In this document: one piece after another, positions 2 to 60,350 of the stretch
Numbering within the stretch: position 1 is the first letter of the stretch
How the letters are laid out: each line of letters opens with the position of its first letter
Origin: a virus
Virus record (IMG/VR): IMGVR_UViG_3300042298_003052
Location: 64,001-128,000 of that record
Reading direction: 5' to 3' (one strand)
Length of the DNA stretch: 64,000 nucleotides
Translations under genes and position numbers: made by a program
The notes under the pieces: model-generated
Databases searched by the model: none
What the model was told of the DNA's origin: nothing
Seen by the model: the letters and a program-made list of their open reading frames with translations, nothing else

Positions 2-3000
2 GATGTTACCTGCATGATAATCTCCGTGAGTAACTTTTTTTTCGTGTAGAGACTTGAGAAGTTTAGCTGCACCTTCTACATATTGAATGATAACTCCTTG
101 GGTAAGCTCACCTGATTTTTCAAGTTCTTTAACCATGCTCCCCATATCCTTACCTTTTAATACTTCTTGCACTAATCGGTTATTTCCTACGTCATATACT
201 TGAGGAGCTAATTCTGGGCCTACTGCTCTAAGAGCTTCGGCCTCAGGCTGCATCATTTTCTTAGTTAAGAGATTTAATGGATAGGGAGCATCCTTAAATT
301 GTTCATAATCAACCCATTCGGGAGCACCTATTTTATTCATCTTAAAACCCTTTTCACGGGCTTGATCAGTAAAAATGATTCCGTTTACACCTTCACCGAG
401 TACTTGGGCCTCGGCAGGGTTTAGATAACCGGATACAGCGGTTCCTCGTTTGTGTTGTTTGTTTAATTGAGCTAAATATTCCATCTGCTCAGGTTTAAAT
501 ATAGGTGATTTCTCAGGAAAGTCAGGAGCCACCCCAAAGACTGAGTAGAATTTTTCCACCATATCAATGAGATTATCTGGATCTATTTCGTTACCGTTCT
601 TCAATGATTGAATTAACGTGTCATATATCGATAAAAACGCTTCTACATCTTGCTTTGCTTGACCTGTTAGATTTTTCATTGATTTTCTCAGATCAGCTTT
701 TAATTCATCATAGTTATACTCTATGTCAGACTTTTCTTGAGAATCGCCATAAGTTTTTCTTAATCGTCCCTCGGGAGTAACAAAAGTGTATTTGCCTGCT
801 TTTTGTTCTTCGACAGCAGTGGGATCTCCAATCAAGACTCCTAATGTTCGTCGCATTGACTCTTGTAATCCTACTTGTTCTCCAGGACCGGAGTACATCA
901 GATTATAAGCACGAACATTAGAAATCGAACGTTGTGTAGCCTGCTTTGCCAAAATGGGATCTATAACTTCTGGAGAAACAATCCGTTGTCTTACCTCATT
1001 AGGCTTAGTACCGCCATCGTATATTTCTCTTAAGATATCAGAGTTAAGTTTATTAGCGATCGCTTTAATTGTACCAGTAGGTAAAACAAATACTTCTTCT
1101 ATACTGGCTAACTCTTTAGTGATAGTATCTTTGTATTCGTCTATACGAGCCTTTATTTCCGTTTCATCTAGACCTAGATCTTTACTTTCTTTTTTAATTT
1201 TTTGTTGTTCCTCTATTTGAGATTTATCTGAGTACCTGTCAGATAAATTAATCAGAAATTCTGCATCGGCTGTTTTAGCAAAAGTTTTAATGTTTTCTAG
1301 TGTGATTTGCGACTCCGTTTTTTCTAATCTTAAGAACTTAGCTACTTCTTCTTGAACTTTAGGATTTTGTATAAATTGTCCTAAACTGTGTCCTGCGCCA
1401 GCACCAGGGATTATGGTTGTTGCTTTACCTGGACGCATAATACCTGACAAATTTTTAATAGTCCCTTCAGGAAGACCATAATCAGTCTCCATCTTTTTCA
1501 TTTCTTTTTCAAGCATTTTTTGATGTTGTTCTGACAATTTACTCATGTCAGAATAACGTTCACCAAATGATGCCAAAAATATAGGATCCATGTCACCTAC
1601 AAAGGCTTTAAAATTTTGAAGAGATGCTGTATTGGTTAAACCGTAAGTTCCCATTGTTAACCCAACACCTTTAGTGTTTTTAGCACCTCCTCGTTCAGCT
1701 ATAGCAGTGGCTTCTTCAGCAGCAAATGTACCACCAGATGTTCCAGCAAAAACGAATTTTTTACCGGGGTATTTTTTCTCGTAAGCCCTTCGTGTAGCTT
1801 CGAGTTTGATAGCGTCAGGGTTATAACCCGCATCTACGGCCATAGAAATAAGTTTTTCAAATTGAGAAGCTTCGTCACTCATTAATTGTTTCTCTAGATC
1901 GCTTCCAGGTGTTACTTGTCCTAATGAACGTAGTAAATCTAATAAAATACTTTTAAATTGTCTAATGGTTTGACCGGATTGTTTGTCATTAGAAAACTTA
2001 TTAGGAACAGGAACGGTAGCAACCTGTTCACCTAATAACTCTTTAAGAAGTACATTCGCGAAATAGGTATTGTCCCCAGGTCTTTCGTAATCATTACCAG
2101 GGATACCACCAGCGATTAATGCAATTGTTTCTTTGTCGTTGATACCTTCAATATCTGGGACATCAATCACTTCAGCTAATTGTTTGGATAGCTCCATAGA
2201 TTGAGCCAGCATTACACGTTTTTGAATACGATACGGTTGGGCGATTGCTCTAACGCCCACACCTGCCACTCTTCTACCACCTTCTGCTACCTCTTCCCAC
2301 GGTGGACGGATGTATTCGTCAATTCTAGATTTGGCACGTTTAGGATCGTTGTAAACTCGAACATCTTCTCCTACACCTACTAACAAATCTTCAAAAGTTT
2401 TTATGTTTCTAACTAACTTTCTGGGATCAAGAAAACTATCTAGTTTGCGTCCCAAATATGCTATGTCATCGCCTACTTCCTTTAAACCTCCTCTGTACCC
2501 AAAAGCTTCGGCTGTTACCATGGCAAGTCCTTTTGTTCGATTATATCCATATCGACCAAAATTATATCCAACTGTTTCGGCATCTGATCCTGTTTTACCC
2601 TCTATATATTTTTGAGCGCCTTTTGCAAAATCGTATGAGAGTGTTTGTCCCATACCTTCCACTGCGCCAGTGATAAACGTTTCAAAAGCCCTAGCTGGTA
2701 AACCAACAATTTTATCGACTAAAGTTTCTTTACTACTTGTATGGATAATTTTTGACATCTTCATCGGCATGTCGTCTTGAGACTTAATGTTCTGTTTGAC
2801 TGACATCGACAAAGCTGATATAGAATTGGCTAAATTCTCATTTGCTATTGTTAGACCTTTATTTTGTAGATGCAATTCTTGTAAAGAATTGTCCAACCGT
2901 AATAAAGATCTGCTTGGTAAGTAAGAATCTTCGTATGAGATTTCAGACGAAGACGTTTCTGTAGTGATTTTTACTTTCTTATCTGTTATACCATCGAATT

Positions 3001-3307
3001 GGTTTTTGAAATTACTCAATTCTTCTACATTAGTTTTTGGTGTTAACGGATTATCACCAAAATATTTGTTAACTTCTTTAAGGTGTTCACGCTTTCTCTC
3101 AATATGTTTATTTAATTTGGCTAAAGGTTCATGATCTACTGTTGGTTTTAATGTTTCTAGTTTAGTTTTACTTGTTATTCCTTTAATATTTCCTTCTATA
3201 TCCTTACCAGCTCGACTCGCAAGTTTTTGAATATCGGCAAGCTGTTTTGTAAACTTGGTATCGTCAAGTCCTAACTCTAAAATTAAACTCCCAAGAGTTG
3301 TTGCCAT
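2..3307 (-). CDS. Tail tape measure protein (partial, >=1102 aa, runs off window) with embedded alpha/beta-hydrolase and kinase-like domains
   Basis: Not in ORF track; read by hand, open from ATG 3307 to the edge. N-terminus MATTLGSLILELGLDDTKFTKQLADIQK is TMP-like; lies downstream of tail chaperone genes; motifs GTSGG, GDMDP, PGAGAGH, LGEGVNG, HGDYHAGNI. Confidence 0.85.
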   Translation of the reverse strand, partial: MATTLGSLILELGLDDTKFTKQLADIQKLASRAGKDIEGNIKGITSKTKLETLKPTVDHEPLAKLNKHIERKREHLKEVNKYFGDNPLTPKTNVEELSNFKNQFDGITDKKVKITTETSSSEISYEDSYLPSRSLLRLDNSLQELHLQNKGLTIANENLANSISALSMSVKQNIKSQDDMPMKMSKIIHTSSKETLVDKIVGLPARAFETFITGAVEGMGQTLSYDFAKGAQKYIEGKTGSDAETVGYNFGRYGYNRTKGLAMVTAEAFGYRGGLKEVGDDIAYLGRKLDSFLDPRKLVRNIKTFEDLLVGVGEDVRVYNDPKRAKSRIDEYIRPPWEEVAEGGRRVAGVGVRAIAQPYRIQKRVMLAQSMELSKQLAEVIDVPDIEGINDKETIALIAGGIPGNDYERPGDNTYFANVLLKELLGEQVATVPVPNKFSNDKQSGQTIRQFKSILLDLLRSLGQVTPGSDLEKQLMSDEASQFEKLISMAVDAGYNPDAIKLEATRRAYEKKYPGKKFVFAGTSGGTFAAEEATAIAERGGAKNTKGVGLTMGTYGLTNTASLQNFKAFVGDMDPIFLASFGERYSDMSKLSEQHQKMLEKEMKKMETDYGLPEGTIKNLSGIMRPGKATTIIPGAGAGHSLGQFIQNPKVQEEVAKFLRLEKTESQITLENIKTFAKTADAEFLINLSDRYSDKSQIEEQQKIKKESKDLGLDETEIKARIDEYKDTITKELASIEEVFVLPTGTIKAIANKLNSDILREIYDGGTKPNEVRQRIVSPEVIDPILAKQATQRSISNVRAYNLMYSGPGEQVGLQESMRRTLGVLIGDPTAVEEQKAGKYTFVTPEGRLRKTYGDSQEKSDIEYNYDELKADLRKSMKNLTGQAKQDVEAFLSIYDTLIQSLKNGNEIDPDNLIDMVEKFYSVFGVAPDFPEKSPIFKPEQMEYLAQLNKQHKRGTAVSGYLNPAEAQVLGEGVNGIIFTDQAREKGFKMNKIGAPEWVDYEQFKDAPYPLNLLTKKMMQPEAEALRAVGPELAPQVYDVGNNRLVQEVLKGKDMGSMVKELEKSGELTQGVIIQYVEGAAKLLKSLHEKKVTHGDYHAGNI

Positions 3308-3413: not shown

Positions 3414-3806
3414 TTATTGAGGTTTGACTTCAGGAACGACTTTAGGTTGTGGTTTTTTGACTTCTTTTCTCTTAAGGATAGAAGTAAAGTCTTCTCCAGC
3501 TAAAGCAGCTTTCACCGTTACAACGCACTTACCGCCTTCTATTGATGTCGTAACAGATTCGACACCCTCCAAGGTTACACCAGCGTGTTTAACGATGTCG
3601 CCTTCTTCATCATGAGAAAGAACAAAACGGCTATAAGGATTATAAACTTCTGATCCCAGTTCCGCTTTGAAAACGACATAAGGAACGCCGTCAACGTCTT
3701 CTTTTTCAACACTTGTTACATTATCAAGTACAGATTCTCCGTGACGAATCTGTTTACCGTCATCAGTATGGACAAGTTCAAATTTGCTTTGTAACAGATC
3801 AGCCAT
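3414..3806 (-). CDS. Hypothetical protein with tandemly duplicated ~45-aa beta domain
   Basis: Start MADLLQSK at 3806 has GAGGT RBS; FELVHTDDG..VFKAELG and FVLSHDEEG..TVKAALAG repeats. Confidence 0.7.
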   Translation of the reverse strand: MADLLQSKFELVHTDDGKQIRHGESVLDNVTSVEKEDVDGVPYVVFKAELGSEVYNPYSRFVLSHDEEGDIVKHAGVTLEGVESVTTSIEGGKCVVTVKAALAGEDFTSILKRKEVKKPQPKVVPEVKPQ

Positions 3807-4218
3807 CTTTGATATACCTCTCGCGTATCTCAGGAATAGTTTGTAGGAAAGCGGCAACAGCAGGAGGTATTCGCTTATCCTTAAGCAACCGATAGACAAT
3901 AGATCTCGTCTTACTACTAAATACAGTCTTCTCCGTGCCTTGTTTCATAAGATCAGGAAAAGGCACGATGTCTTCTGGCTTTATTTGTTTAGAGTCCTTA
4001 CCTGCAAAACCATTAAACAGACCAGACCAACCGATCGCATGAGTTATGGATTTTACATTGATGTCTTGTCTATACGCCTCCTCATAGAATTTAAGCGTCT
4101 CAAATATCAACGCTGGATTCTCATCACCAAAATGTTCGTAATCTAGACGGGGGTCGGTACAACCGAGATATTGGAGTCTGAGATATATGTCTCCCCACTC
4201 AATAATAGCGATTCCCCC
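3799..4218 (-). CDS. Tail assembly chaperone C-terminal extension (gpT-like), reached by -1 frameshift
   Basis: -1 frame is open from slippery GGGGGAA (4218-4212) through ORF 3799..4110. Confidence 0.8.
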   Translation of the reverse strand, partial: GGIAIIEWGDIYLRLQYLGCTDPRLDYEHFGDENPALIFETLKFYEEAYRQDINVKSITHAIGWSGLFNGFAGKDSKQIKPEDIVPFPDLMKQGTEKTVFSSKTRSIVYRLLKDKRIPPAVAAFLQTIPEIRERYIKDG

Positions 4219-5402: not shown

Positions 5403-6359
5403 TTACGCGCCCAGAGGAGGCGTATAGACGTTAGACAGAGGATCGAACGCGCCAGTAGGTGCAGTATACTTGAAGGAGGAACCTTGGAACTGAAGGTCAG
5501 CCTGCACTGTAATAAGGTCTTGTACAGGTGAACTTTGATTACCAGAGGTCAAAATGGCAGCTCCAGCAAATTCTTCACCAAAGGGGCGTCTGAGGGTAGC
5601 GTAAATTTCAGAACCAAAGAAGCGATCGTCGTAAAGAATCTTCATGAGAAGATCAGCACCGGGATCGCCAATAATTCTTTGGAAAGTGAATGACATGGTT
5701 CTGTTACTACCTGTAGTAACCATTTCCATACCACTACCACTGAGGAAGTTGGCTGCGTCAACAGTCTTGGGCTGAGAAGACGGAGAAGCGTCAGTGGCAC
5801 CAGCGATGTAAACGGTAGCTGTAGTTTTAGCTGTATGGTTTTCAACAGCTAAAACAGTAGTAGGTTGAACTTGTAGACGTGTAGCGCCAGCAGGAGCAAA
5901 ATCGCTTACCGTTACACTATACGCACCATTGTTAAATGTCAGTTTCTCACCAGGATAGATATTGGTGGGAAGGGTCGTAACAGGTAACACTTCACTACCG
6001 ACAGTCAGCACAGAGGCGTCTACAGTACCAGCAGTGGAAGCAGGAATAGCTGCTGACAACGGGTACAAAAGAGTTACCGCTGTAGCACCAGTCACCGCTG
6101 TGCTAGTACGAGCTTCAACACCGTTTGCAAAACGAATCTTGGAAAAAGCAGGAATAGTGGCAGTAGCAGCAAGTGTCAACGAAGTGGCACCTTTAGCTGT
6201 AGGAGCTGCCGAAGTGGTAACGTTGATCGCAGCAGTAGCCGCTCCTACAGTAACAGTATATTCCGTAGGTACCCGAGTACCTTTAGGAAGAAGCACAAAC
6301 CGAAGTTCTGTAAATACGCTAGTGCCTCGTTCGCTAGCGTAGTTGATAATTTGTCCCAT
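5403..6359 (-). CDS. Major tail (tube) protein with inserted beta-rich domains
   Basis: Ala/Thr-rich; C-terminus GEEFAGAAILTSGNQSSPVQDLITVQADLQFQG is tail-tube-like; position. Confidence 0.8.
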   Translation of the reverse strand: MGQIINYASERGTSVFTELRFVLLPKGTRVPTEYTVTVGAATAAINVTTSAAPTAKGATSLTLAATATIPAFSKIRFANGVEARTSTAVTGATAVTLLYPLSAAIPASTAGTVDASVLTVGSEVLPVTTLPTNIYPGEKLTFNNGAYSVTVSDFAPAGATRLQVQPTTVLAVENHTAKTTATVYIAGATDASPSSQPKTVDAANFLSGSGMEMVTTGSNRTMSFTFQRIIGDPGADLLMKILYDDRFFGSEIYATLRRPFGEEFAGAAILTSGNQSSPVQDLITVQADLQFQGSSFKYTAPTGAFDPLSNVYTPPLGA

Positions 6360-9202: not shown

Positions 9203-11044
9203 TCAGGTAAGTGCTACATCAAACGTGTTGACCTTGAACACCCGTGTTTCCTGAGGAATGTCAGATGTATCATTGTAACCAGTAGCGTCAACGTCTAGTG
9301 GTCCGTGGGCTTCGTAGGATTGCCAAATGGCGCGATCCATCCGACCAAAGTCAGTCTTCTCATCAAAGAGAATCTGAACACCAGAGCCGCCGATACCACG
9401 ACCAGAAGCCATACCACCAAAGGCGTAAGAAGTACGAACCACAGAAGAGGTGCTGTCACCATTGGTTTCAGTAGCTACACCTTCTGCCCCAGTAGCATTA
9501 GCAAAGGCGTTAGTTTGCCAAATGTGGAAGCCCTCAAACAACCCTTGATAACCTTCAACCTTGATGTTTTCACCAGCAGGGTAATCACCAAGCATCATGT
9601 TGGTCATTTCCCGGATCTGTTCAACACTAGGAGCTTCAAAGTATTGGTTGACTAGAGAACTCTTCAGTTGAGACATAGCGGTAGGATTGGTAACAAGACC
9701 GTAGTTACCATCAGGTAGAGGCACAACGCGATCGTTCGATAGCCTCGTGTATACCTGATTAAGGAACTGCCGTGTCATAGTACCACCCACAGTCACAGAA
9801 GCCGCTGCTGTAACAATGTTATCGCCATTGTTATAGTAGTTCTTAGTGGTAGGTCTCCACTGTTCACGGATGACCAGATCTTCCCAGTTGTAATAGTCGT
9901 AGAAAAGATCTCTTTCCAAGATCCTCATCAGAGGCAACATGGCGTACTCTTCTACGAATCGAGGGATAGAAATAGGAGGCGCTTCCGAACGACCCCGACC
10001 GTACTCATTAAGAATCATCTTAACAAGGCCGGTACGAACCCGTTGATTACCAGCATCAATGGGAACGTAGGTATTAGATCCGGAGAGCAAACGTTGTTGC
10101 GAATTGGTCGCTACCTCAGGATAAGCAGCCCGAGGGATATCAACAACTTCGCCGTTACCGCGATCGTACCGGTGAACAGTTTGAGGGAATTGCCAGAATA
10201 CCAGTCCGGGACGGGAGCTAACCCGCATGATGGAAGATAGAACTTCCAAGAAACCACCAGGGACATCAGAGGAAGTGGTAGCAGCTCTCCGCTCAGACTC
10301 AGTGATCATCTTAGAACCACGGAATAAACCATGCTTCTTACCCATATCAGTCATCTCTTTGAGAAGAGATTTGTAGCTGCTATCATTGTACCGTTGTTCT
10401 GCCATCCACTGATCGATTTCGTGGGTGGGGTACACAGGCATCAAAGAACCGCCACTGGTAGTCCTATAGGTGACACCTAAACCGTCACGGATAGACATAA
10501 ACTCAGCTAGTCGTCCATCCAAACGATCGCCGTTAGGAGATGTACGAATATTAACATTAGGCATAGAGATTTCTTTCGCACCTTCTGGACGACCAATCAA
10601 CTTAGATAGACCTTCGAGAACCTTGTCAGATTCCTTAGCCTTATTCAATTCATCAGCCAATGTTCGATTTTGAACCTTAGCTTTCTCTAGCTCTTCCTGC
10701 AAAGGAGCGATCGCATTTTCGACGGCTGTTCTGACAAACTGTTGTAGAATTTCGGCAGTGATAGCAGGCTCAGATTTTTCTACAACGGCTGTTTCCTGCT
10801 CAATTTCTAGTTCAGGTTCAACAGCTTTTTCGACTGTTTCTTCGTCTTGATCGCTAACTTCTTCAACTTCTCGTTCATCAACAGAATCGTTGACAACCAT
10901 GCTGGAGGAAAGGCCCAGGGCCTTCGCAAAGCCGTTATTATGAGCTTGAACTCCAGATTTTTGAAGGTTGATAGATAGTTTCATCTGTTCTTCTTCGCTG
11001 AGGTTACCCAGCTTGATAATTTCACGTAAGGAGTTTTTGCCCAT
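9203..11044 (-). CDS. Major capsid protein with N-terminal acidic/coiled-coil scaffold region
   Basis: GGAGGTG RBS before MGKNSL; scaffold-like N-terminus then capsid-like body ending TDFGRMDRAIWQSYEAHG; synteny. Confidence 0.8.
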   Translation of the reverse strand: MGKNSLREIIKLGNLSEEEQMKLSINLQKSGVQAHNNGFAKALGLSSSMVVNDSVDEREVEEVSDQDEETVEKAVEPELEIEQETAVVEKSEPAITAEILQQFVRTAVENAIAPLQEELEKAKVQNRTLADELNKAKESDKVLEGLSKLIGRPEGAKEISMPNVNIRTSPNGDRLDGRLAEFMSIRDGLGVTYRTTSGGSLMPVYPTHEIDQWMAEQRYNDSSYKSLLKEMTDMGKKHGLFRGSKMITESERRAATTSSDVPGGFLEVLSSIMRVSSRPGLVFWQFPQTVHRYDRGNGEVVDIPRAAYPEVATNSQQRLLSGSNTYVPIDAGNQRVRTGLVKMILNEYGRGRSEAPPISIPRFVEEYAMLPLMRILERDLFYDYYNWEDLVIREQWRPTTKNYYNNGDNIVTAAASVTVGGTMTRQFLNQVYTRLSNDRVVPLPDGNYGLVTNPTAMSQLKSSLVNQYFEAPSVEQIREMTNMMLGDYPAGENIKVEGYQGLFEGFHIWQTNAFANATGAEGVATETNGDSTSSVVRTSYAFGGMASGRGIGGSGVQILFDEKTDFGRMDRAIWQSYEAHGPLDVDATGYNDTSDIPQETRVFKVNTFDVALT

Positions 11045-14120: not shown

Positions 14121-14867
14121 TTAACCGCCAGGATAAATCCATCTGGCATCACCAGATCTATCATCAACGTGTAGAAACTGCATACTGTTACTATATGCTA
14201 AACCACCTCGCCATTCATCATTAAGAAGTCTATAAAGTTCTAAAGGCGATCGTCCAGGAATGGCTATATCTAACGCTTTGCCTTGAACGTGCATACTAAA
14301 AGGGGCACCTCCAACACGGGCATTAGTCTCAGGATCTCTGTAACCACTACGGATGATAATGGATTTTCCAAAATGATCGCATATCTTTTGAGCTTTTATA
14401 GAAATACTTATTAAATTCGCCACTACAGACACATTAGCAGGACGACGATAATTACCAGAAGGTGTAAAATGTAATACTTCACCCCATGTAATATTAGGTG
14501 CCTTGCGATCGTGTATAGGTTGTCCTGACCAAGTTCTAACGCTGTTACCAGGTAAAAGAAATGATACACCGAGATCCTTAGGCTTACTTACAGAAGAATC
14601 TATAGGTTTATTGTCCATACTAAAACCGCTTTGATCTTCTATAGCACCTTTCCAGACATACCAAGTGTTTTTGCCACTTTTGTGAATAGTTTTAGGATCA
14701 ATTTTTTCAATATCTAACGTGAAGACAATGTGACTCCCTTCTTCCCTATATGCTGCAATAGGAAAAGTCTTACCACGTTTGGCAATAGCGAGTTCTTCTT
14801 TACCAATAGTGCTGCTATCTGCGGCACTAGGTTTTAGATACGTATCTGAAGTTGTGATAAGTTCCAT
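14121..14867 (-). CDS. Peptidase M15 family endolysin with N-terminal accessory domain
   Basis: SGYR..N..VGGA..SMHVQGKALDI..FLHVDDR zinc-peptidase motifs. Confidence 0.85.
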   Translation of the reverse strand: MELITTSDTYLKPSAADSSTIGKEELAIAKRGKTFPIAAYREEGSHIVFTLDIEKIDPKTIHKSGKNTWYVWKGAIEDQSGFSMDNKPIDSSVSKPKDLGVSFLLPGNSVRTWSGQPIHDRKAPNITWGEVLHFTPSGNYRRPANVSVVANLISISIKAQKICDHFGKSIIIRSGYRDPETNARVGGAPFSMHVQGKALDIAIPGRSPLELYRLLNDEWRGGLAYSNSMQFLHVDDRSGDARWIYPGG

Positions 14868-14950
14868 GGCTATACAACGCTATTTACAGTTATCATTTTA
14901 GCGTTTTAGCCTTTTATTTATTTATAATTAAAGATAATAAGTTATCTGGT

Positions 14951-16279
14951 TTATGCTACCAAAAGATCGCCATTATAAAAACAGTGTCCATCAATGAAAG
15001 GTATTTGTGTAACTGTAGAATCAAAAGTCTGCCAGTCATCTCTTGAAAAATGAGTGATAATAGTTACACCTTGTTGGTAATTACGTTCTACGCCATAACC
15101 AGGTAGTGTAGGGTCTTGTTTACCGATCATACCTGGACAAACACCCCACATTCTCTTGTATCTTATACCAGAATCCGTAGGTACAGGAATCATCTGTGAG
15201 ACAGTAGACTGCCTGTGAATATGTCCCATAACAACATTTGAATAGTAGGATTTCATGGTATCAGCGATCGCATCTTTACCGCATTTTTCACCATGAGTAT
15301 AAATCCAATCACGATGTTTCCATACGTTAGCTCCGCTAGTATAACCATCGAAGCCTTCTTCAGTAAAACCACCATGATAAATTATGTTCTTACCAGTAAA
15401 ATCTAACATGTCAGATATGCTAGGGATGGTAAACGTAAATCCAGGAACGTCCACGACTGTTTTGATCGCCTCTCTTACATAGTCGCCAACTCTTTTATCG
15501 TGATTTCCTTCTATAACTCTAAATTCACAATCTGTAAGTTCTCTGATATCGTGGAAGAAAGTCGCTGCCGTCTGTAATGATTTTTGAGTATGACCTTTAA
15601 GATCTACTCCATGGGGGTGACGACCAAATTCAGGAAAGTCTAATGTGTCACCTAACGCCACAATAAGATGTGGATTCAATAGTTCTACTAACTTTAGAAC
15701 CAAAATTAAAGCTTTTTCGTCATGGGTGGATACTAGATTCCCATTGACAGAACGATATCCAAAATGAATATCAGGTAATACTAATATGTTCTCTACGTTT
15801 TTTGGTCTACTATCGAATTTATACTTTGATTCAGGTCTAGTCCATGTTACTTGTTGTAAACCAAATTCAATAGGATTAATTGTCTTAGGTACGATGTTAG
15901 CAGTAACACCAAAGTTTTCAATCTGAGTAAGAGTGTCTTGACCTCCTTTGTCTCTAAGTTTCATAGAGGTCGTCCAACTCTTTACACGCCCATTAGTCAT
16001 TGTGTAATAGTCGGTATCTATACCCTTAGATTTTAGATACTCAATAGGATCTGCTGGAGATCCAATCGTTGTTATATTGGCCGTTATGATACCAGTTGCG
16101 TCATCTTTTTGTATATCAACTGTTACTTCGGTCTTAGAAATTCCTTGTTTACGACGATCGCTTTTTGCTTTGTAACGACAAGATTTACAATCCTTTCTAT
16201 ATGTTCCACGATCAGAACGAAGTTCAAACTTATCTATGGACAAAATTTCTTTACAAGTGTCACACTCTTTTGTTTCCAT
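14951..16279 (-). CDS. Calcineurin-like metallophosphoesterase with N-terminal Zn finger
   Basis: DIHFG, GDTLD, GNHD, THG, GHIH; CxxC..CxxC at N-terminus. Confidence 0.85.
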   Translation of the reverse strand: METKECDTCKEILSIDKFELRSDRGTYRKDCKSCRYKAKSDRRKQGISKTEVTVDIQKDDATGIITANITTIGSPADPIEYLKSKGIDTDYYTMTNGRVKSWTTSMKLRDKGGQDTLTQIENFGVTANIVPKTINPIEFGLQQVTWTRPESKYKFDSRPKNVENILVLPDIHFGYRSVNGNLVSTHDEKALILVLKLVELLNPHLIVALGDTLDFPEFGRHPHGVDLKGHTQKSLQTAATFFHDIRELTDCEFRVIEGNHDKRVGDYVREAIKTVVDVPGFTFTIPSISDMLDFTGKNIIYHGGFTEEGFDGYTSGANVWKHRDWIYTHGEKCGKDAIADTMKSYYSNVVMGHIHRQSTVSQMIPVPTDSGIRYKRMWGVCPGMIGKQDPTLPGYGVERNYQQGVTIITHFSRDDWQTFDSTVTQIPFIDGHCFYNGDLLVA

Positions 16280-22267: not shown

Positions 22268-22884
22268 ACATAGTGAATCTGCCGCCTCTCCCAGTTCTTA
22301 TAAGATCTGAGTATTTAGAGAATGGTGACTCTAAAAGACTTATAAAAGCACGATTAGCCACTGTAAAAAGTGTGCCAGGAGAGGCGTTTAGATTTGAGGT
22401 GTATATACCAGAATACGGAGCGTTATATGACAAACTTCCAATAGAATGTATTCTGCACAAAGAAGGAAATAATTACTTACAAACAAACGAATTACAGTTA
22501 TGGGATTGTTTTGATAATTACATTAATGTGATTAAAAAAAGCGTTATAAACAATATAGATTGTATAGCCTATATAAGAAGCAAAAAGATGAGAGGTTATT
22601 ATGTTCTTACTATAGATAGTTATACCCCATCAGATAGACTATCTTTAAGTTATACAGAAGATCCAGAAGAACATAAAAGTTTTAATATGATCGCATTAAA
22701 TAACGGTCAATTTGCGCTTTTACCTAACAATAGAGTTCAGTTTGTAGACGCAAGTTTAAGTGGTAGCGATAATCCTCCCTTACCTAAATTCAAAGTGGCC
22801 TCCAAACGGTACTACTGTGAAGGAGGATCTATCGCTACCGATGATTGGTCATACAGACTAACTTCAGAGGAGTCTAGCAGCTAA
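22264..22884 (+). CDS. Conserved phage hypothetical protein
   Basis: NLPP..VLIRSEYL, LQLWDCF, EHKSFN..LNNGQFALLPNNR resembles a family recalled from aquatic phages. Confidence 0.65.
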   Translation: MNIVNLPPLPVLIRSEYLENGDSKRLIKARLATVKSVPGEAFRFEVYIPEYGALYDKLPIECILHKEGNNYLQTNELQLWDCFDNYINVIKKSVINNIDCIAYIRSKKMRGYYVLTIDSYTPSDRLSLSYTEDPEEHKSFNMIALNNGQFALLPNNRVQFVDASLSGSDNPPLPKFKVASKRYYCEGGSIATDDWSYRLTSEESSS

Positions 22885-24183
22885 TTCACTCAAAGGCGAT
22901 CGCTCTGTCTTACTCAATGTTATATGAGCAGAAAGATCGCTTTCTTTGAACCGTTCTACGACAAGACTTAACCCATTGCTACCACTATCTAAATAACTAC
23001 TATCTATTTGAGTAGGATCTCCAGATAGTATACATTTAGAACCTTCACCGATTCTAGTTAAAACGGTCTTCACTTCTGATGGACTCATATTCTGAGCTTC
23101 GTCTACCCATATATATTGTTCTGGTAGCGATCGTCCTCGTATGTGAGCAAGTGATTCAGCCTGTATAAGACCTTGTTCCTCTAGATCGTCATAAGCACTA
23201 CGTTTGGTCTTTTTGTCGTGCTTATAGTTACAAATCACATCAAGGTTGTCTTTGATCGGAGCTAACCAAGGTGTTAGTTTCTCACTTAATGATCCTGGTA
23301 AAAACCCTAAATCGTTCTTAGAGCCTCCCATAGGCATTGTAGGCTTGGAAACCAACATACGAGTATAAACACCCGCCTGTACCTTTGATAAGCCCACAGC
23401 TAAGGCCATAAGACTCTTACCTGTACCAGCAGCACCACTTATCGTTACAAGGGGTACAGAGTCATCTAAGAGTAAATGCAGGGCAAATGTTTGTTCTCTA
23501 TTTTTAGGAGTGATTCTACTAATTTGATCCAGCTTTGGTAACGCTCTGATCACTCCCTGTTTATAGATCGCTAGAACAGTATGAGAAGGATTCGCTACAT
23601 CTCGTACAGTTATACACTCGTTAGGGAAGTAAGGATCGTTTGTAACAATACCGCGATCAAATAACTGACTCATTTGATCTGCTGTCATAACGGTTTCTGA
23701 GTGACCATCATATAAATGTGTGTGGTCAATTTTCTCAGATCTGTAATCTTCTGTCTTTACACGAAGTCCACCCGCTTTTACACGGAGATTTATATCTTTA
23801 GTTACAAGAACAACTTGTTCATCACTCTTTTCTCGTAACTCAGTTAGATATTTGGCTGTGGCGAGTAGACAATTATCAACTTTATCTCTAGACAATTCAG
23901 CCGGTATCTTAGATATAATTTCTTGACTGATGACAGATATAATTAGTTTGCCACCGTTAGGTAAAGATACACCTTGAATTAAATCGCCTTGTTGACGTAA
24001 TTTATCAAGCTCCCTAGAAACGTGTCTTGCATTACGATTTAATACGCCATCTCCTGTTTTGAAAGAATCCAATTCTTCTAAAACACTTATACAAAGAACT
24101 ACAACATTATCATCAAACTTGTATATGGATAGGCTGTCATGCAATAGAACATTGGTATCTAGAACGTAATACTTTACCATCAT
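22864..24183 (-). CDS. phoH: PIN-PhoH (PhoH2-type) ATPase/RNase
   Basis: VLDTNVLL PIN; GAAGTGKS; HIRGRSL; DEAQN; GDPTQID; ERSPLSELAARLL. Confidence 0.92.
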   Translation of the reverse strand: MMVKYYVLDTNVLLHDSLSIYKFDDNVVVLCISVLEELDSFKTGDGVLNRNARHVSRELDKLRQQGDLIQGVSLPNGGKLIISVISQEIISKIPAELSRDKVDNCLLATAKYLTELREKSDEQVVLVTKDINLRVKAGGLRVKTEDYRSEKIDHTHLYDGHSETVMTADQMSQLFDRGIVTNDPYFPNECITVRDVANPSHTVLAIYKQGVIRALPKLDQISRITPKNREQTFALHLLLDDSVPLVTISGAAGTGKSLMALAVGLSKVQAGVYTRMLVSKPTMPMGGSKNDLGFLPGSLSEKLTPWLAPIKDNLDVICNYKHDKKTKRSAYDDLEEQGLIQAESLAHIRGRSLPEQYIWVDEAQNMSPSEVKTVLTRIGEGSKCILSGDPTQIDSSYLDSGSNGLSLVVERFKESDLSAHITLSKTERSPLSELAARLL

Positions 24184-24424: not shown

Positions 24425-24497
24425 AGCCGCCACCGAGACTCGAACTCGGAACCTTCGGTTTACAAAACCACTGCTCCACCGATTGAGCTATGGCGGC
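24425..24497 (-). tRNA. tRNA-Thr(UGU)
   Basis: Cloverleaf GCCGCCA/TGGCGGC, loop TTTGTAA, TTCGAGT T-loop; no CCA. Confidence 0.9.
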
Positions 24498-24560
24498 ATG
24501 ACCTGTGCAATACTATAGCACCTATGATATGATATCGACAACCAATTAGCTTAGGAACCA

Positions 24561-24761
24561 ATGGAAGAACTTACCTTAGAACAAGAACTTGAATTGGTCG
24601 TATTCGATAAAAAAGTCGATATGATGAGCGGCGATCAGGCCAGGGATTTATTAAAGAAAGTTCACAGAACCATGATAATCAGAGAAACAATGTATAAGAC
24701 TATACTGAAAAAAAGTCTGGGTGTAAAGGATTATCAACAAAACATTAATCGTCAACTATGA
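24561..24761 (+). CDS. nblA: Phycobilisome degradation protein NblA
   Basis: ELTLEQEL..F...V..MS.DQARDLL..M.IRETMYK.ILKK matches NblA pattern; 66 aa. Confidence 0.85.
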   Translation: MEELTLEQELELVVFDKKVDMMSGDQARDLLKKVHRTMIIRETMYKTILKKSLGVKDYQQNINRQL

Positions 24762-24991
24762 AAATTCAAATCTGTCCTGTTTGTGAAACTCGGGTTTTAG
24801 AAGGTAGATTTTATGTTAGTAGACCTGTTAAGAACGGTGAAACGTTCGAGCGGATCTATGATGTAGAGTTTCCACCAGATGTACAACACACACGTATTTG
24901 TCAGTACGCTAAGAAACAAGGATGTCTGAACACCTGTAAAGTTATTAATGAAAAGGAACTTTTTGAAAATCGAAATCTCGGAATTAATTAA
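24758..24991 (+). CDS. Small Cys-containing hypothetical protein
   Basis: CPVC..RICQY..GCLN; ATGA overlap with nblA. Confidence 0.6.
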   Translation: MKIQICPVCETRVLEGRFYVSRPVKNGETFERIYDVEFPPDVQHTRICQYAKKQGCLNTCKVINEKELFENRNLGIN

Positions 24992-24992
24992 A

Positions 24993-25406
24993 ATGTATCT
25001 GATCGCTAAGAATAAATATAGGTTTGATATACCTATTAGTCTTCAAAGAAACCATCTCCTAGATATATGGCATCTAGACAAAGCTCATTGGTTTACTTTG
25101 TGCGGTGTAAAAGTAAAAGAAGTTTTTTCAAAATCTTCTGAGTTAGTACGATTTAATCTAGAACGTTTTGGTCACACACAAGAAGTGACTATAGAACAAG
25201 ATCGCAACGTCACGAAAGTTAACGTGAATAACTGCATGTTAATCTTTACCATTGAGGAAGAGAAGGAAAATCATCACTTTCTGAATGTAGAAATGCGATC
25301 TGACTATAGAGTGCTGCGTATACTGTGGCCGATTATCCAGTTGGTGTTTCTATTGACGGTCATAGAAGACATCGTGTATTATAAAAAAAGTGAGACATTA
25401 GCTTAA
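24993..25406 (+). CDS. Hypothetical protein; stop codon lies inside tRNA-Lys
   Basis: ORF track (start trimmed to MYLIAK). Confidence 0.55.
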   Translation: MYLIAKNKYRFDIPISLQRNHLLDIWHLDKAHWFTLCGVKVKEVFSKSSELVRFNLERFGHTQEVTIEQDRNVTKVNVNNCMLIFTIEEEKENHHFLNVEMRSDYRVLRILWPIIQLVFLLTVIEDIVYYKKSETLA

Positions 25407-25462
25407 CGGTAAAGCACGGGGCTTTTAACCTCTTGATGGAAGTTCGATTCTTCCATGTCTCA
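25392..25462 (+). tRNA. tRNA-Lys(UUU)
   Basis: GAGACAT/ATGTCTC acceptor, loop CTTTTAA, TTCGATT T-loop. Confidence 0.85.
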
Positions 25463-25497
25463 TTCTCATTGAACAGTTAACAAAGGAGGACATAGAA

Positions 25498-25974
25498 ATG
25501 GTATCAATTAACAGAGATGTTTTGGAAGAACGTATTCTTGACTTTGAAGATGCGGTGACCGCCGCAGGTACAGAGTTTTACGGTATCGGACCACTGTTTG
25601 GGGATATTGTCCGCCACTGGCTGCAAAAACAAACTGGAGAAAGTGTAGAGCTGTTGGCTATTGCCCTCGCGATTGAAACGTGGCTACGCGATGACTTTGC
25701 TAAGCTCGTAGAGCAATACGCTAGTAGAGAGAAGTATGCAGGTTCCTTGGAGGGTAAAATCGACACTATTGTACGTGTAGCCAAAAATCGGCTCATTACA
25801 GCCAAAGAAGCCTGGTCTGAGGGTAGAGAGTTTTATTCCACTATCTATGGCCAACATCATGAGCTCAAGCGCAAGCTCATGAAGGAATCCTCCGACGAAG
25901 AGATAATGGATAGTATTCATGAAACGGCTGCTGAAAATAGAGATAACCGTAGGCTGATACGGGGACAAGGCTAA
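25498..25974 (+). CDS. Hypothetical protein
   Basis: AAGGAG RBS. Confidence 0.65.
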   Translation: MVSINRDVLEERILDFEDAVTAAGTEFYGIGPLFGDIVRHWLQKQTGESVELLAIALAIETWLRDDFAKLVEQYASREKYAGSLEGKIDTIVRVAKNRLITAKEAWSEGREFYSTIYGQHHELKRKLMKESSDEEIMDSIHETAAENRDNRRLIRGQG

Positions 25975-26024
25975 AGGCGCACTTTGAATAACGGAACAGA
26001 AATAAGGAAATAAAAAGCGGTTGT

Positions 26025-26053
26025 TTGAAAAGCGTCTCTATTTGTTCTATAAT
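26025..26053 (+). promoter_or_regulatory. Sigma70-type promoter for tRNA pair
   Basis: TTGAAA-17-TATAAT. Confidence 0.7.
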
Positions 26054-26067
26054 ACTTAAAAAAATAC

Positions 26068-26140
26068 CCAGGGTTGGCCGAGCGGATTAGGCAACGAACT
26101 CATAATTCGTCTTAGGTAGGTTCAACTCCTACACTCTGGA
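26068..26140 (+). tRNA. tRNA(CAU), Met or lysidine-Ile2
   Basis: CCAGGGT/ACTCTGG acceptor, loop CTCATAA. Confidence 0.88.
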
Positions 26141-26144
26141 CTTC

Positions 26145-26220
26145 CCTCTGCTGGGCTAATTGGACAAGCCACCACCCTTCTAAGGTGTTCATCATCCTGG
26201 TTCAAGTCCAGGGCAGAGGA
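26145..26220 (+). tRNA. tRNA-Arg(UCU)
   Basis: CCTCTGC/GCAGAGG acceptor, loop CTTCTAA, TTCAAGT T-loop. Confidence 0.85.
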
Positions 26221-58727: not shown

Positions 58728-59435
58728 GTCAAGTTTGAATTGAAGAACGCATCAGTTACCGTCCCCGTCGTTGGAGACGGCGGGTATGCCAACAAGTCCA
58801 GCCTTGAACTGGATGTTCTTAGTGTTGGTAAGGTTAACGTCGGAGATCCGTGGGATCTCTCTTTCCTCAAGGGGAAGGAGATCCAGCACCAAGGGCTGAC
58901 TTTGAGTATCCCCTCTGGGATGCTTAAATTTTTAGGAAATATCTCTGTTTCGTTAGAAGCAGAAGAAGATGGATTTGAGAGCTTTGTTTTTCGGGCTCAA
59001 GAAGCCCGTTGGTCCGGAAAACAGGACGGCTATTTCGGCGGCATGTCCGCCTATGGAAATTTCCGTGCTCAGATTGAATGGGTGGTGGAGGGCACCTATA
59101 TGCTGCCCGAAGACTTCACGGGTAGGTCGTTCAAAAATTTGGCTACCCTGGTCACCCTCCACTTGGAGGAATGGCCCTGTTTTTACAGGGTTGACTGGGA
59201 AACCTACAAGCGTCGCCAATGGGCGGTAGAGGCTGTAGATCGTCAACAAGCTCTATCGCTTGCTGCTAGCGCTGCAAAAATGCTAGCTATCCCGGCTAGC
59301 GATAGAAATTCTCAGATAGACGAAAGTCTATCTTGGTGGTGGGACTACATCCGACGACAAGAACTAAAATCTCTTGAGGGATTTGATACTTACGAAACGG
59401 TTTCTGAGGCAATGGAGGCTGACAGCCTAAATTAG
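58725..59435 (+). CDS. Hypothetical protein, paralog D2
   Basis: Paralog of 57380. Confidence 0.75.
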   Translation: MVKFELKNASVTVPVVGDGGYANKSSLELDVLSVGKVNVGDPWDLSFLKGKEIQHQGLTLSIPSGMLKFLGNISVSLEAEEDGFESFVFRAQEARWSGKQDGYFGGMSAYGNFRAQIEWVVEGTYMLPEDFTGRSFKNLATLVTLHLEEWPCFYRVDWETYKRRQWAVEAVDRQQALSLAASAAKMLAIPASDRNSQIDESLSWWWDYIRRQELKSLEGFDTYETVSEAMEADSLN

Positions 59436-59536
59436 CCTCTTCATCACCCCAGGGTCTACCTACTAGGCTCTGGGGTGCCTTTTGCTGTTGTCTACTGTTC
59501 GTTTTTTTTGTTCACTTTCGTCCAAGGAGGACAATC

Positions 59537-59842
59537 ATGGTCAAGTTTGAATTGAAGGAAGCTCAAGATCTCCACCCGACTCTGGGATTGCCGGAGGGAT
59601 CAATAGTGAAAGTTTCAGAAGCTTCTGAAACTTTTTGTGCGGGGCATGTCGGATTTATAGTCCGGCAAAGCCTGGACGAAACTTCCGCAGAAGAAAACGA
59701 ATGGGGCTTTTCTTCGTTCAACTCTGTAAATGGAGTGTGCTACGAAATTCCCTATGAGGATTTTGAAGCGTTAAAATACTTCGACCGCAGATTTTACCGC
59801 CTGCGAGTAGTGCAGGGGGAATACATCAACGATTTGGATTAG
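59537..59842 (+). CDS. Hypothetical protein; first 7 codons identical to 58725
   Basis: AAGGAGG RBS; caatcatggtcaagtttgaattgaag shared. Confidence 0.7.
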   Translation: MVKFELKEAQDLHPTLGLPEGSIVKVSEASETFCAGHVGFIVRQSLDETSAEENEWGFSSFNSVNGVCYEIPYEDFEALKYFDRRFYRLRVVQGEYINDLD

Positions 59843-59857
59843 CAAATAGGGTATACG

Positions 59858-60026
59858 ATCGTCCTAGTTTGTTATCTTTTGTGGATCCAGTCAACAAACA
59901 ATCGTGTTTCAACCATCGTGGATCAAAACAAGAGCGATCGCGTCCGGGTTGCCTGTAAACTGAACTTGACACTTCTGGTGAGATCGTTTAGAATAAAAGG
60001 AGATGAGTTAAAGGAATGCAATTATG
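59858..60026 (+). repeat. ~170-bp promoter cassette, copy 2
   Basis: Matches 58558..58727. Confidence 0.9.
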
Positions 60027-60254
60027 ACCAATTTCATTGCAGAGCTGACTTCTCCGGAACAAGCTCTAGAGTTAACCCAAGGTCGTCTAGTTATGGAAGT
60101 TTTTGAAGTATCGTTCTCACCAGAGAATGTGCTTACTGCGGCGGCTCTGCTAATTGAAAAAGAAGACAATGCTAATCTAGTGAGTCAAGCGGGAGTAATC
60201 GCCCGTGCAGGCAAACATGGTTGGGGTATGGGAGACGTTTACCGTACCGTCTAG
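60024..60254 (+). CDS. Hypothetical protein
   Basis: First gene after promoter. Confidence 0.65.
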   Translation: MTNFIAELTSPEQALELTQGRLVMEVFEVSFSPENVLTAAALLIEKEDNANLVSQAGVIARAGKHGWGMGDVYRTV

Positions 60255-60350
60255 CATCAGGTGGTTTACGTAGACTGTCTTGTATGGATAGTCTACGTAA
60301 ACCATTTGTTAAAATATAAATTAAAACCAACGAATCAAAAGAGGATGGTC

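Follow-up and report, generated by a model that had tools for sequence, protein, structure and literature searches.

Minimal kinase-fold domains within the giant tape measure protein of a probable cyanophage

The tape measure proteins (TMPs) of mycobacteriophage TM4 and coliphage T5 (Pb2) have wall-degrading motifs embedded in them. In the Thermus phage P23-45, the N-terminal part of the 5,002-amino-acid (aa) TMP, gp96, functions as a virion RNA polymerase and transcribes the pre-early genes (Chaban et al. 2024, PMC10770324); that paper reports the polymerase in virions and hypothesizes that it is located at the TMP pore, and the word "kinase" does not occur in it. Kinases have been described in another class of giant phage protein: Iyer et al. 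2017 (PMC5512222) report that phage polyvalent proteins contain kinases which are truncated at the C terminus and form a monophyletic group, mainly of Verrucomicrobia-Chlamydia and Bacteroidetes phages and prophages and also of conjugative elements, and propose that they modify the host as does the kinase of T7, gp0.7, cited there as phosphorylating host proteins early in infection. The term "tape measure" does not occur in their paper. Here we describe two kinase-fold domains, KD1 and KD2, in a giant TMP encoded by the virus record IMGVR_UViG_3300042298_003052 (139,448 bp, with direct terminal repeats and rated complete). The stretch of DNA analyzed, referred to as the window, comprises 64,000 nucleotides, bases 64001-128000 of this record, and the open reading frame (ORF) of the TMP crosses its left edge.

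Among the readings considered, we rank the following first. KD1 and KD2 would be active phosphotransferases that the virion contains as a portion of its TMP and that leave the tail along with it at infection. Because ATP, which they require, is confined to the cytoplasm, they would have to become exposed to that compartment of the host, at or near the TMP pore. Their targets there would be proteins of the host or of the entering phage, phosphorylated ahead of phage gene expression or without need of it. As a whole, we judge this chain to fall a little short of an even chance; its separate steps differ in strength and are taken up below.

Sequence, fold, and type of the two domains

KD1 spans aa 955-1185 of the ORF. 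Its in-window part (aa 955-1102; window 2..445, minus strand) covers the N-lobe and everything up to and including the catalytic loop, and the remainder (aa 1103-1185) lies at genome 63753-64000. All of the following KD1 features are on the minus strand: the Gly-rich loop G971-E-G973-V-N-G976 (window 380..397), the beta-3 lysine K989, which contacts the ATP phosphates (window 341..343), the helix-C glutamate E1022 (window 242..244), and the catalytic loop H1094-G-D1096-Y-H-A-G-N1101 (window 5..28), the two loops being read directly from the sequence. A preliminary description, made from the window, had quoted these motifs, and each is in the correct frame and place (VLGEGVNG from aa 969, GFK with K989, PEAEALRAV from aa 1021, LVQEVLKG from aa 1045, and HGDYHAGN at aa 1094-1101); as a set, they far exceed chance. 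It had also placed a DFG motif beyond the window edge. An equivalent is indeed present just beyond that edge, where the catalytic loop is followed by IFVMEDGSMKTI and then by D1114-L1115-G1116, but its Asp lies 13 residues past N1101 rather than the expected 15-25 and Leu replaces the Phe or Tyr. The residue set of KD1 is therefore, in order, G971xG973xxG976, K989, E1022, D1096, N1101, and D1114.

About 120 residues beyond D1114-L-G, the full motif set recurs as ILGQGAKG, VYK, SEAQ, HGDYHPGN, and IDYG. This second copy is KD2 (aa 1237-1444; genome 62976-63599, minus strand), in which G1253xG1255xxG1258, K1271, E1282, D1351, N1356, and D1369 follow one another in the same order. KD2 lies off the window and was hence invisible to the preliminary description. 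The two domains are paralogues, with 26% identity (E 8e-24).

In Pfam, KD1 (aa 950-1185) matches Pkinase with an E value of 7.6e-09 (35.8 bits; cut-off, 31.7), and ABC1 (28.5 bits; cut-off, 22.9), PK_Tyr_Ser-Thr (26.4; 23.1), and RIO1 (25.4; 22) also exceed their cut-offs. For KD2, ABC1 (29.7; 22.9), APH (27.4; 23.2), and RIO1 (23.4; 22) lie above threshold and Pkinase (28.5; 31.7) and Kdo (20.1; 21.3) below it. The matches to the Pkinase profile end at about position 154 of 263. A phmmer comparison with PDB sequences gave 715 distinct matches for KD1 at E<=1, with all 60 of those listed being protein kinases, and likewise returned kinase catalytic cores for KD2. AlphaFold2 models, built with an alignment of eight sequences, reached a pLDDT of 83.2 and a pTM of 0.81 for KD1 and values of 91.7 and 0.86 for KD2. 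Foldseek found at least 500 PDB matches to the KD1 model at E<=0.001, every listed one a kinase, and VIA, an independent, Foldseek-free structure search of 48,161 chains, found 312 (KD1) and 291 (KD2) chains at Z>=8, with a kinase fold in all 50 chains listed for each model. Pfam, AlphaFold2, Foldseek, and VIA thus bear out the protein-kinase-like fold that had been read from the motifs, and we regard the presence of kinase-fold domains within the TMP as virtually certain.

The best structural matches in VIA are RIO-type proteins. For KD1 they are archaeal Rio2 (Z 16.0; root-mean-square deviation 3.7 over 173 aa) and Rio1 (Z 15.7), followed by the next entry at Z 14.4; for KD2 they are Rio2 (Z 15.9), Rio1 (15.0), RioK1 (14.2), and Bud32 (14.1). 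Lower in the ranking are WaaP (Z 13.9 and 13.1), OspG (12.8 for KD1 and 11.9 for KD2), and APH enzymes (11.9-12.7). Past the DFG Asp, the models of both domains have only about 70 residues, folded as three helices, and neither the models nor the eight-domain alignment has a conserved activation segment or APE motif or a substrate-binding lobe of helices F to I. The letters A1134-P-E do occur in KD1, within a predicted helix and in a column that is not conserved in the other seven domains. KD1, unlike KD2, has an insert of 21 residues modeled with low confidence between beta-3 and helix C (aa 996-1016; window ~260-322). RIO kinases have a flexible loop between the same two elements. Because of the short three-helix tail and the absence of an activation segment, APE motif, and F-to-I lobe, KD1 and KD2 are, as modeled, kinase folds of the minimal, RIO/Bud32-like kind rather than Hanks-type kinases. 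This agrees with the atypical minimal type (ABC1/RIO/Bud32/APH) suggested earlier, since RIO2, RIO1, and Bud32 lead the structural matches and the Pfam scores for ABC1, RIO1, and APH reach or approach their thresholds. The RIO1 profile is outscored by Pkinase for KD1 and by ABC1 for KD2; we describe the domains as RIO-like in shape and do not count them as members of the RIO family.

Some of the same scores would fit a different class of substrate, in which case KD1 and KD2 would resemble WaaP, Kdo, APH, or choline kinases and would phosphorylate a small molecule, a sugar, or a lipid, thereby modifying a metabolite or a precursor of the envelope. APH passes its cut-off for KD2 and Kdo comes near to doing so, Kdo passes in one related TMP described below (P0003, 23.1 bits) and reaches 51.8 bits in another (P0004), and WaaP and APH enzymes are among the structural matches. 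Protein-kinase families nevertheless score equally well or better, with Pkinase the top family for KD1 and RIO1 (71.9 bits) and Pkinase (68.7) the top families for P0004, and RIO and Bud32 stand structurally above WaaP and APH. Moreover, since ATP is lacking in the periplasm, even a target in the envelope could be reached only from the cytoplasmic side. We consider this alternative very unlikely.

The carrier protein and its giant relatives

The ORF containing KD1 and KD2 is uninterrupted over 5,072 codons on the minus strand (genome 52089-67307; L002:89-15307; window -11911 to 3307, from the ORF listing of this genome stretch). Its frame opens at window position 3307 and leaves the window at the left edge, with the N-terminal 1,102 codons at window 2..3307. 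Several lines of evidence identify the product as a TMP, as the preliminary description had held. First, the Pfam family TMP_3 (PF20155) matches at aa ~2808-2994 (E 5.4e-23, 82.1 bits; cut-off, 41), and the single TMP_3 match found in a genome-wide search (89.2 bits) is this ORF. Second, a tblastn search with the core region matched 1,179 phage records, every one at <60% identity, and the features underlying the 25 core matches listed are mostly annotated as tape measure proteins. Third, the gene order on the minus strand is major tail protein, small unassigned ORFs, and TMP ORF. The sheath family has no match in the genome, and we take the ORF to encode the single TMP of a ~139-kb phage with a noncontractile tail. 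Strongly hydrophobic segments lie on either side of the TMP core (aa 2787-2806 and 3017-3047), and the kinase domains are located ~1,350 residues N-terminal of this predicted membrane-inserting part. The ~2,780 N-terminal residues, ahead of the hydrophobic segments and the TMP_3 core, form what we term the cargo half of the protein.

The octamer HIP1, GCGATCGC, occurs 34 times in the window against an expected 0.24 occurrences, a count that was reached in none of 100 shuffles. This excess indicates that the host is probably a HIP1-type cyanobacterium and makes the earlier designation as a cyanophage a probable one; a tblastn search with PhoH was uninformative as to host. The locus of a related phage with a TMP-borne kinase (L004) has no HIP1 copy in 20 kb, weak evidence that the architecture probably extends beyond HIP1-type hosts.

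An exhaustive search of 1.84 billion representative proteins returned 1,257 matches at E<=0.001, of which the three at E<=1e-10 were all giant proteins. Among the best 150 of these 1,257 matches are 11 proteins of at least 2,000 aa; 5 of the 11 share the TMP core by BLASTP and 6 share the kinase region only. The five TMP-core giants (P0002, P0003, P0004, P0011, and P0102) are 3,613-5,767 aa long. Pfam was run on P0003, P0004, and P0011 and gave both TMP_3 and a kinase family above cut-off in each, with Kdo being over its cut-off in P0003; for P0002 and P0102, the coupling of TMP and kinase is that given by BLASTP. The gene for P0004 lies on L004, an IMG/VR contig of 122 kb, and NCBI lists the protein simply as "tape measure domain-containing protein." One kinase domain is present in P0002, P0003, P0011, and P0102, and two are present in P0004 and in the ORF described here. 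The domains occur at aa ~800-3,300, and the pair in P0004 is placed differently. P0002 and P0003 are collinear with our ORF and have a single kinase domain. Because kinase number and position vary relative to the core, the arrangement looks like that of swappable cassettes.

This variability also bears on the possibility that KD1 and KD2 are RIO/Bud32-style, ATP-driven switches that serve the TMP itself, promoting its refolding, pore gating, or DNA entry upon meeting ATP. Such a role would suit the best structural matches, Rio2, Rio1, RioK1, and Bud32, whose main roles, in ribosome maturation and in KEOPS, are those of ATPases or switches, as well as the lack of an activation segment and of a substrate-binding C-lobe, and the kinase constantly accompanies the TMP core in six divergent giants. 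An integral machine part would, however, be less expected than swappable cargo to vary in number and position, and most TMPs do without a kinase: 1,179 phage records match the core and none of 50,697 match the kinase region. A switch function is in our view distinctly unlikely.

Other searches gave few TMP-borne kinases. With aa 950-1450 as the query, tblastn found no match at E<=1e-3 in those 50,697 GenBank phage records, and when proteins of 2,789-8,876 aa were searched by word index for the kinase region, no match outside the cluster of the query itself was obtained. Pattern scans based on a four-sequence alignment (A2) yielded nine and six weak loci in genome and metagenome collections, none of them in a giant ORF (largest frame, 1,881 aa). 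In IMG/VR, one of seven loci was a giant TMP (L004, which encodes P0004), and the other six held either a gene of a giant virus or a free-standing kinase 300-450 aa in length. Four of these loci, L007-L010, encode the same free-standing kinase of 300 aa (L007 ORF, ~9428-10327), whose catalytic loop is 47% identical to that of KD1 over 36 residues, and L005 encodes one of 450 aa. The free-standing kinases of L005 and L007-L010 may be relatives of those borne by TMPs.

In a tree of 147 rows, the eight TMP-borne domains require two label changes, compared with a mean of 7.9 after shuffling, and none of 500 shuffles gave so low a number. The five rows nearest to KD1 are all TMP borne, with P0003 and P0002 being the closest. 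For this tree and for the cysteine control described below, 6 of 151 proteins whose match covered <60 profile positions were dropped, and nongiant proteins were represented by their first listed domain only. The TMP-borne domains therefore cluster; clustering, and not a single clade, is what we claim.

The eight kinase domains from the six giant TMPs have 21-37% identity to the reference domain. Over this range, six positions are invariant in all eight: the Gly-loop Gly (G973), the beta-3 Lys, the hinge Gly, the catalytic Asp, the catalytic Asn, and the DFG Asp. The helix-C Glu is invariant in the four closest domains and is found in the same or the adjacent column across the eight-domain alignment. 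D1096, for which the preliminary description had suggested a D1096A control, is among the invariant residues and is the right choice for a catalytically dead mutant. Invariance of the catalytic columns across such divergent domains argues for retention of ATP binding and phosphotransfer, and KD1 and KD2 are probably catalytically competent. The opposite view would make them inactive pseudokinases, folded spacers or docking modules that add to TMP length or surface. TMP length sets tail length, so any insert alters the tail, and the region as a whole is poorly conserved in sequence, both of which would suit a spacer. A spacer would nonetheless not be expected to keep six columns that include catalytic and ATP-binding residues, and we give the pseudokinase explanation very little credence, slightly less than that of small-molecule kinases.

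A further property links the kinases to their carrier. Cysteine is absent from all 27,997 residues of the six giant TMPs, whereas the other window ORFs of at least 150 aa have 143 in 9,984 residues (1.43%). The eight kinase domains of these TMPs have none in 1,549 aa, compared with 135 in 26,255 aa (0.51%) for 139 other kinase domains; 54 of these 139 controls are Cys free, and P is ~3-5e-4 for the TMP-borne set. The kinase domains obey the same Cys-free rule as the rest of the TMP. This would be expected if they share the route of the TMP, with storage in the tail and passage through the envelope, and complete Cys avoidance may serve as an independent, checkable signature of tail-travelling proteins.

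The TMP has further enzyme-like regions. A cassette-like region with an HExxH motif (HEIRH at aa 2524) lies at aa ~2340-2640 (genome ~59390-60290) and is common to the distant P0102 and P0004 and missing in P0002 and P0003. A comparison of aa ~2400-2640, made with a processing protease of the polyvalent type in mind, left the region unassigned: Pfam gave only DUF6782 at E 0.035, PDB sequences gave nothing relevant, and Atlas values were at most 0.78. Two regions are alpha/beta-hydrolase-like in having a GxSxG "nucleophile elbow": GTSGG at aa 522 (region aa ~520-640; window ~1390-1750) and GHSAGG at aa 2195 (region aa ~2165-2230). For the first, Pfam found no family in aa 350-700. The second aligns with P0102 and P0004, and aa 1950-2350 gave a DUF676 serine esterase match of 19.4 bits, under the cut-off of 20.3, along with weak lipase-type matches. 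Peptidase_M23 has no Pfam match in this ORF and has one in the relatives P0011 and P0003. No peptide recurs within the ORF as an exact 5-mer at least three times or an exact 4-mer at least five times, and no window of 8 or 10 residues recurs in similar form at least twice when BLOSUM62 scores of 30 and 34, respectively, are required.

Proposed delivery and site of action

That KD1 and KD2 are catalytically active, form part of mature virions, and are delivered to the host is our inference from the features above, as are their topology and their substrates. The position of the cargo N-terminal of the membrane segments is in favor of delivery, and we regard release of the kinases into the cytoplasm, taken by itself, as evenly poised. 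A fuller and more speculative picture, which we hold to be doubtful, is that of a Cys-free clade of minimal RIO-like kinases acting as swappable TMP cargo, in which the tandem pair would be threaded through the tail, remain tethered at the cytoplasmic mouth of the pore, and strike host defense or signaling proteins within seconds of adsorption, ahead of phage expression; the parallel would be the P23-45 virion polymerase, with the host proteome as the target instead.

Several points weigh against delivery of an active kinase on the TMP. The lumen of a siphovirus tail tube is unlikely to accommodate folded kinase domains of 25 kDa in three copies, and since folded kinases are not expected to fit, an unfolded or metastable state, or another location, would be required. 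In cells, RIO proteins and Bud32 are largely ATPases or switches and not classical substrate kinases. Secondary motif positions are altered in two of the eight domains, which read SGDFNFGN and DFQ in P0102 and HTDMQNQN and DLE in P0004a. Compared with full-length relatives, the kinase region is the least conserved part of the protein (32-34% identity, versus 37-51% elsewhere). The 5,072-aa length is found in three nonidentical variants, on contigs of 139, 89, and 22.5 kb, a recurrence that speaks for a genuine fusion, but at 99.88-99.98% identity these are too nearly identical to provide information on selection. Distal tail genes do not adjoin the TMP gene, with the minus strand there holding only a 164-aa ORF and an EAL protein. 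Finally, for the P23-45 TMP itself, the authors describe the details of packaging as unresolved (PMC10770324).

Alternatively, the kinases might be made late, within the TMP precursor, and act in the producer cell on host, phage, TMP, or tail proteins, perhaps being cut off before or during tail assembly and thus never reaching the next host. The gene lies within a late structural module, ATP is present in the producer cytoplasm, and folded kinases are hard to house in a tail tube of the dimensions considered above. In addition, a processing protease could lie between the kinases and the TMP core, where the HExxH motif occurs (aa 2524). The HExxH region, however, lacks family support (DUF6782 at E 0.035, Atlas values <0.8) and is missing in P0002 and P0003, which do bear kinases. 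The absence of Cys spans the kinases and the rest of the TMP and is easier to explain by a shared virion and ejection route, and the TMP-fused polymerase of P23-45 is detected in virions and active at the pre-early stage (PMC10770324). Action in the producer cell is unlikely in our estimate, and delivery of active kinases on the TMP remains the reading that we prefer.

If the kinases are active and delivered, the TMP would be an injection vehicle for ready-made signaling enzymes, besides being a ruler and a pore former, and phages could rewire or disarm the host ahead of transcription. Cyanobacteria depend heavily on Ser/Thr phosphorylation, and the kinase substrates could therefore matter ecologically.

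Genome setting and comparison with described systems

Upstream of the TMP gene, all on the minus strand, a gene at window 5403..6359 encodes the major tail (tube) protein (phrog_820, E 2.8e-05; phrog_3884, E 0.0016; Pfam Phage_tail_2, E 0.0016, with 18.9 bits being below the cut-off of 23.8). Between this gene and the TMP gene, directly upstream of the latter, the ORF listing has two small adjacent or overlapping ORFs at window 3414..4110 (3799-4110, 103 aa; 3414-3806/3899, 130-161 aa). From their position, at the usual site of tail assembly chaperone genes, they are putative chaperone genes without family support, as neither PHROG nor Pfam gave any match. Downstream of the TMP gene, also on the minus strand, the 164-aa ORF has no family match, and the second gene encodes an EAL (cyclic di-GMP phosphodiesterase) protein with a full-length domain (Pfam E 4.8e-59; genome 49738-50814, L003:13738-14814). 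The coding strand then switches, with large plus-strand ORFs of 444, 755, 741, and 455 aa at genome 36091-49747 (L003:91-13747).

Elsewhere, the window regions 14124-16279 and 22867-24183 hold an endolysin/peptidase-like gene (phrog_894, E 4.4e-21), a gene for a metallophosphoesterase fused to an endonuclease-VII-like N terminus (phrog_221, E 2.1e-26), and a PhoH-like gene (phrog_2765, E 2.3e-97). Four tRNA genes (Thr-TGT, Lys-TTT, Met-CAT, and Arg-TCT) are clustered at window 24425-26220. A genome search for the terminase family PF03237 was negative, and the only Pkinase matches in the genome are the two inside the TMP ORF. Composition gives no sign of a foreign origin for the kinase region, its GC content of 0.39-0.42 being within the gene range of 0.34-0.44.

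We found no description of a TMP-kinase fusion in the literature covered, which excluded subscription journals and supplementary files. In the cyanophage reports on PA-SR01, CL131, and MinS1 and in a jumbo-phage survey, "tape measure" and "kinase" appear in unrelated passages only. The novelty claimed by the preliminary description must be narrowed, since truncated kinases in polyvalent proteins predicted to be delivered (PMC5512222) and an enzyme fused to a TMP (PMC10770324) are already in print.

By structure, the closest proteins are RIO1, RIO2, and Bud32, which KD1 and KD2 resemble (Z 14.1-16.0 over 169-174 residues) in having a minimal fold without an activation loop, an HGD-type catalytic loop, and a RIO1 profile score above cut-off. 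Identity in the structural alignments is only 10-21%, and KD1 and KD2 belong to a phage virion protein rather than to the machinery of ribosomes or tRNA modification; they are not orthologues. No counterpart of the N-terminal helix of RIO kinases or of the winged helix of RIO2 is apparent in the structural alignments, which start at the kinase core.

As in TM4 and T5 Pb2, the TMP would be the vehicle for an entry enzyme, and regions of the SLT and M23 types lie downstream of the core in this ORF and its relatives (with Pfam Peptidase_M23 in the relatives only). The activities carried by TM4 and Pb2 are directed at peptidoglycan, outside the cytoplasm, and are independent of ATP, whereas a kinase implies exposure to the cytoplasm. 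T7 gp0.7, an early gene product synthesized once the DNA has entered, is a free protein and not part of a virion protein, unlike the TMP-embedded KD1 and KD2. Shigella OspG (PDB 4q5h) is likewise a very small kinase fold that is delivered ready-made into a target cell (Z 12.8 and 11.9 for KD1 and KD2, respectively); it differs in its use of type III secretion and in the kingdom of its target, and as a structural match it has Z scores below those of RIO and Bud32.

KD1 and KD2 are similar to the kinases of polyvalent proteins (Iyer et al. 2017, PMC5512222) in that they belong to the Ser/Thr/Tyr-kinase superfamily, most of the C-terminal subdomain is lost, the active-site residues are kept, and the carrier is a giant multidomain phage protein predicted to enter with the DNA. 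They retain a small three-helix C-terminal remnant, and they lack the insert between the catalytic His and Asp that defines that family, H-G-D, H-T-D, or S-G-D being contiguous in all eight domains. The Gly loop reads GEG or AEG in three of the eight domains and Gln (Q1047 in LVQEV) is present in four, and the correspondence of these positions to the columns of the polyvalent family is uncertain.

The sole experimental precedent that we found for a cytoplasm-acting enzyme carried as cargo on a TMP is gp96 of P23-45. If our proposal is correct, the principle of an enzyme on a TMP would be widened from genome expression, as in P23-45, to host manipulation and would be linked to the predicted kinases of polyvalent proteins. 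Both proteins are TMPs of ~5,000 residues with an N-terminal enzyme ahead of transmembrane segments and a metallopeptidase-type region; in contrast to the two-barrel RNA polymerase of gp96, the cargo here consists of two minimal kinase domains and other enzyme-like regions.

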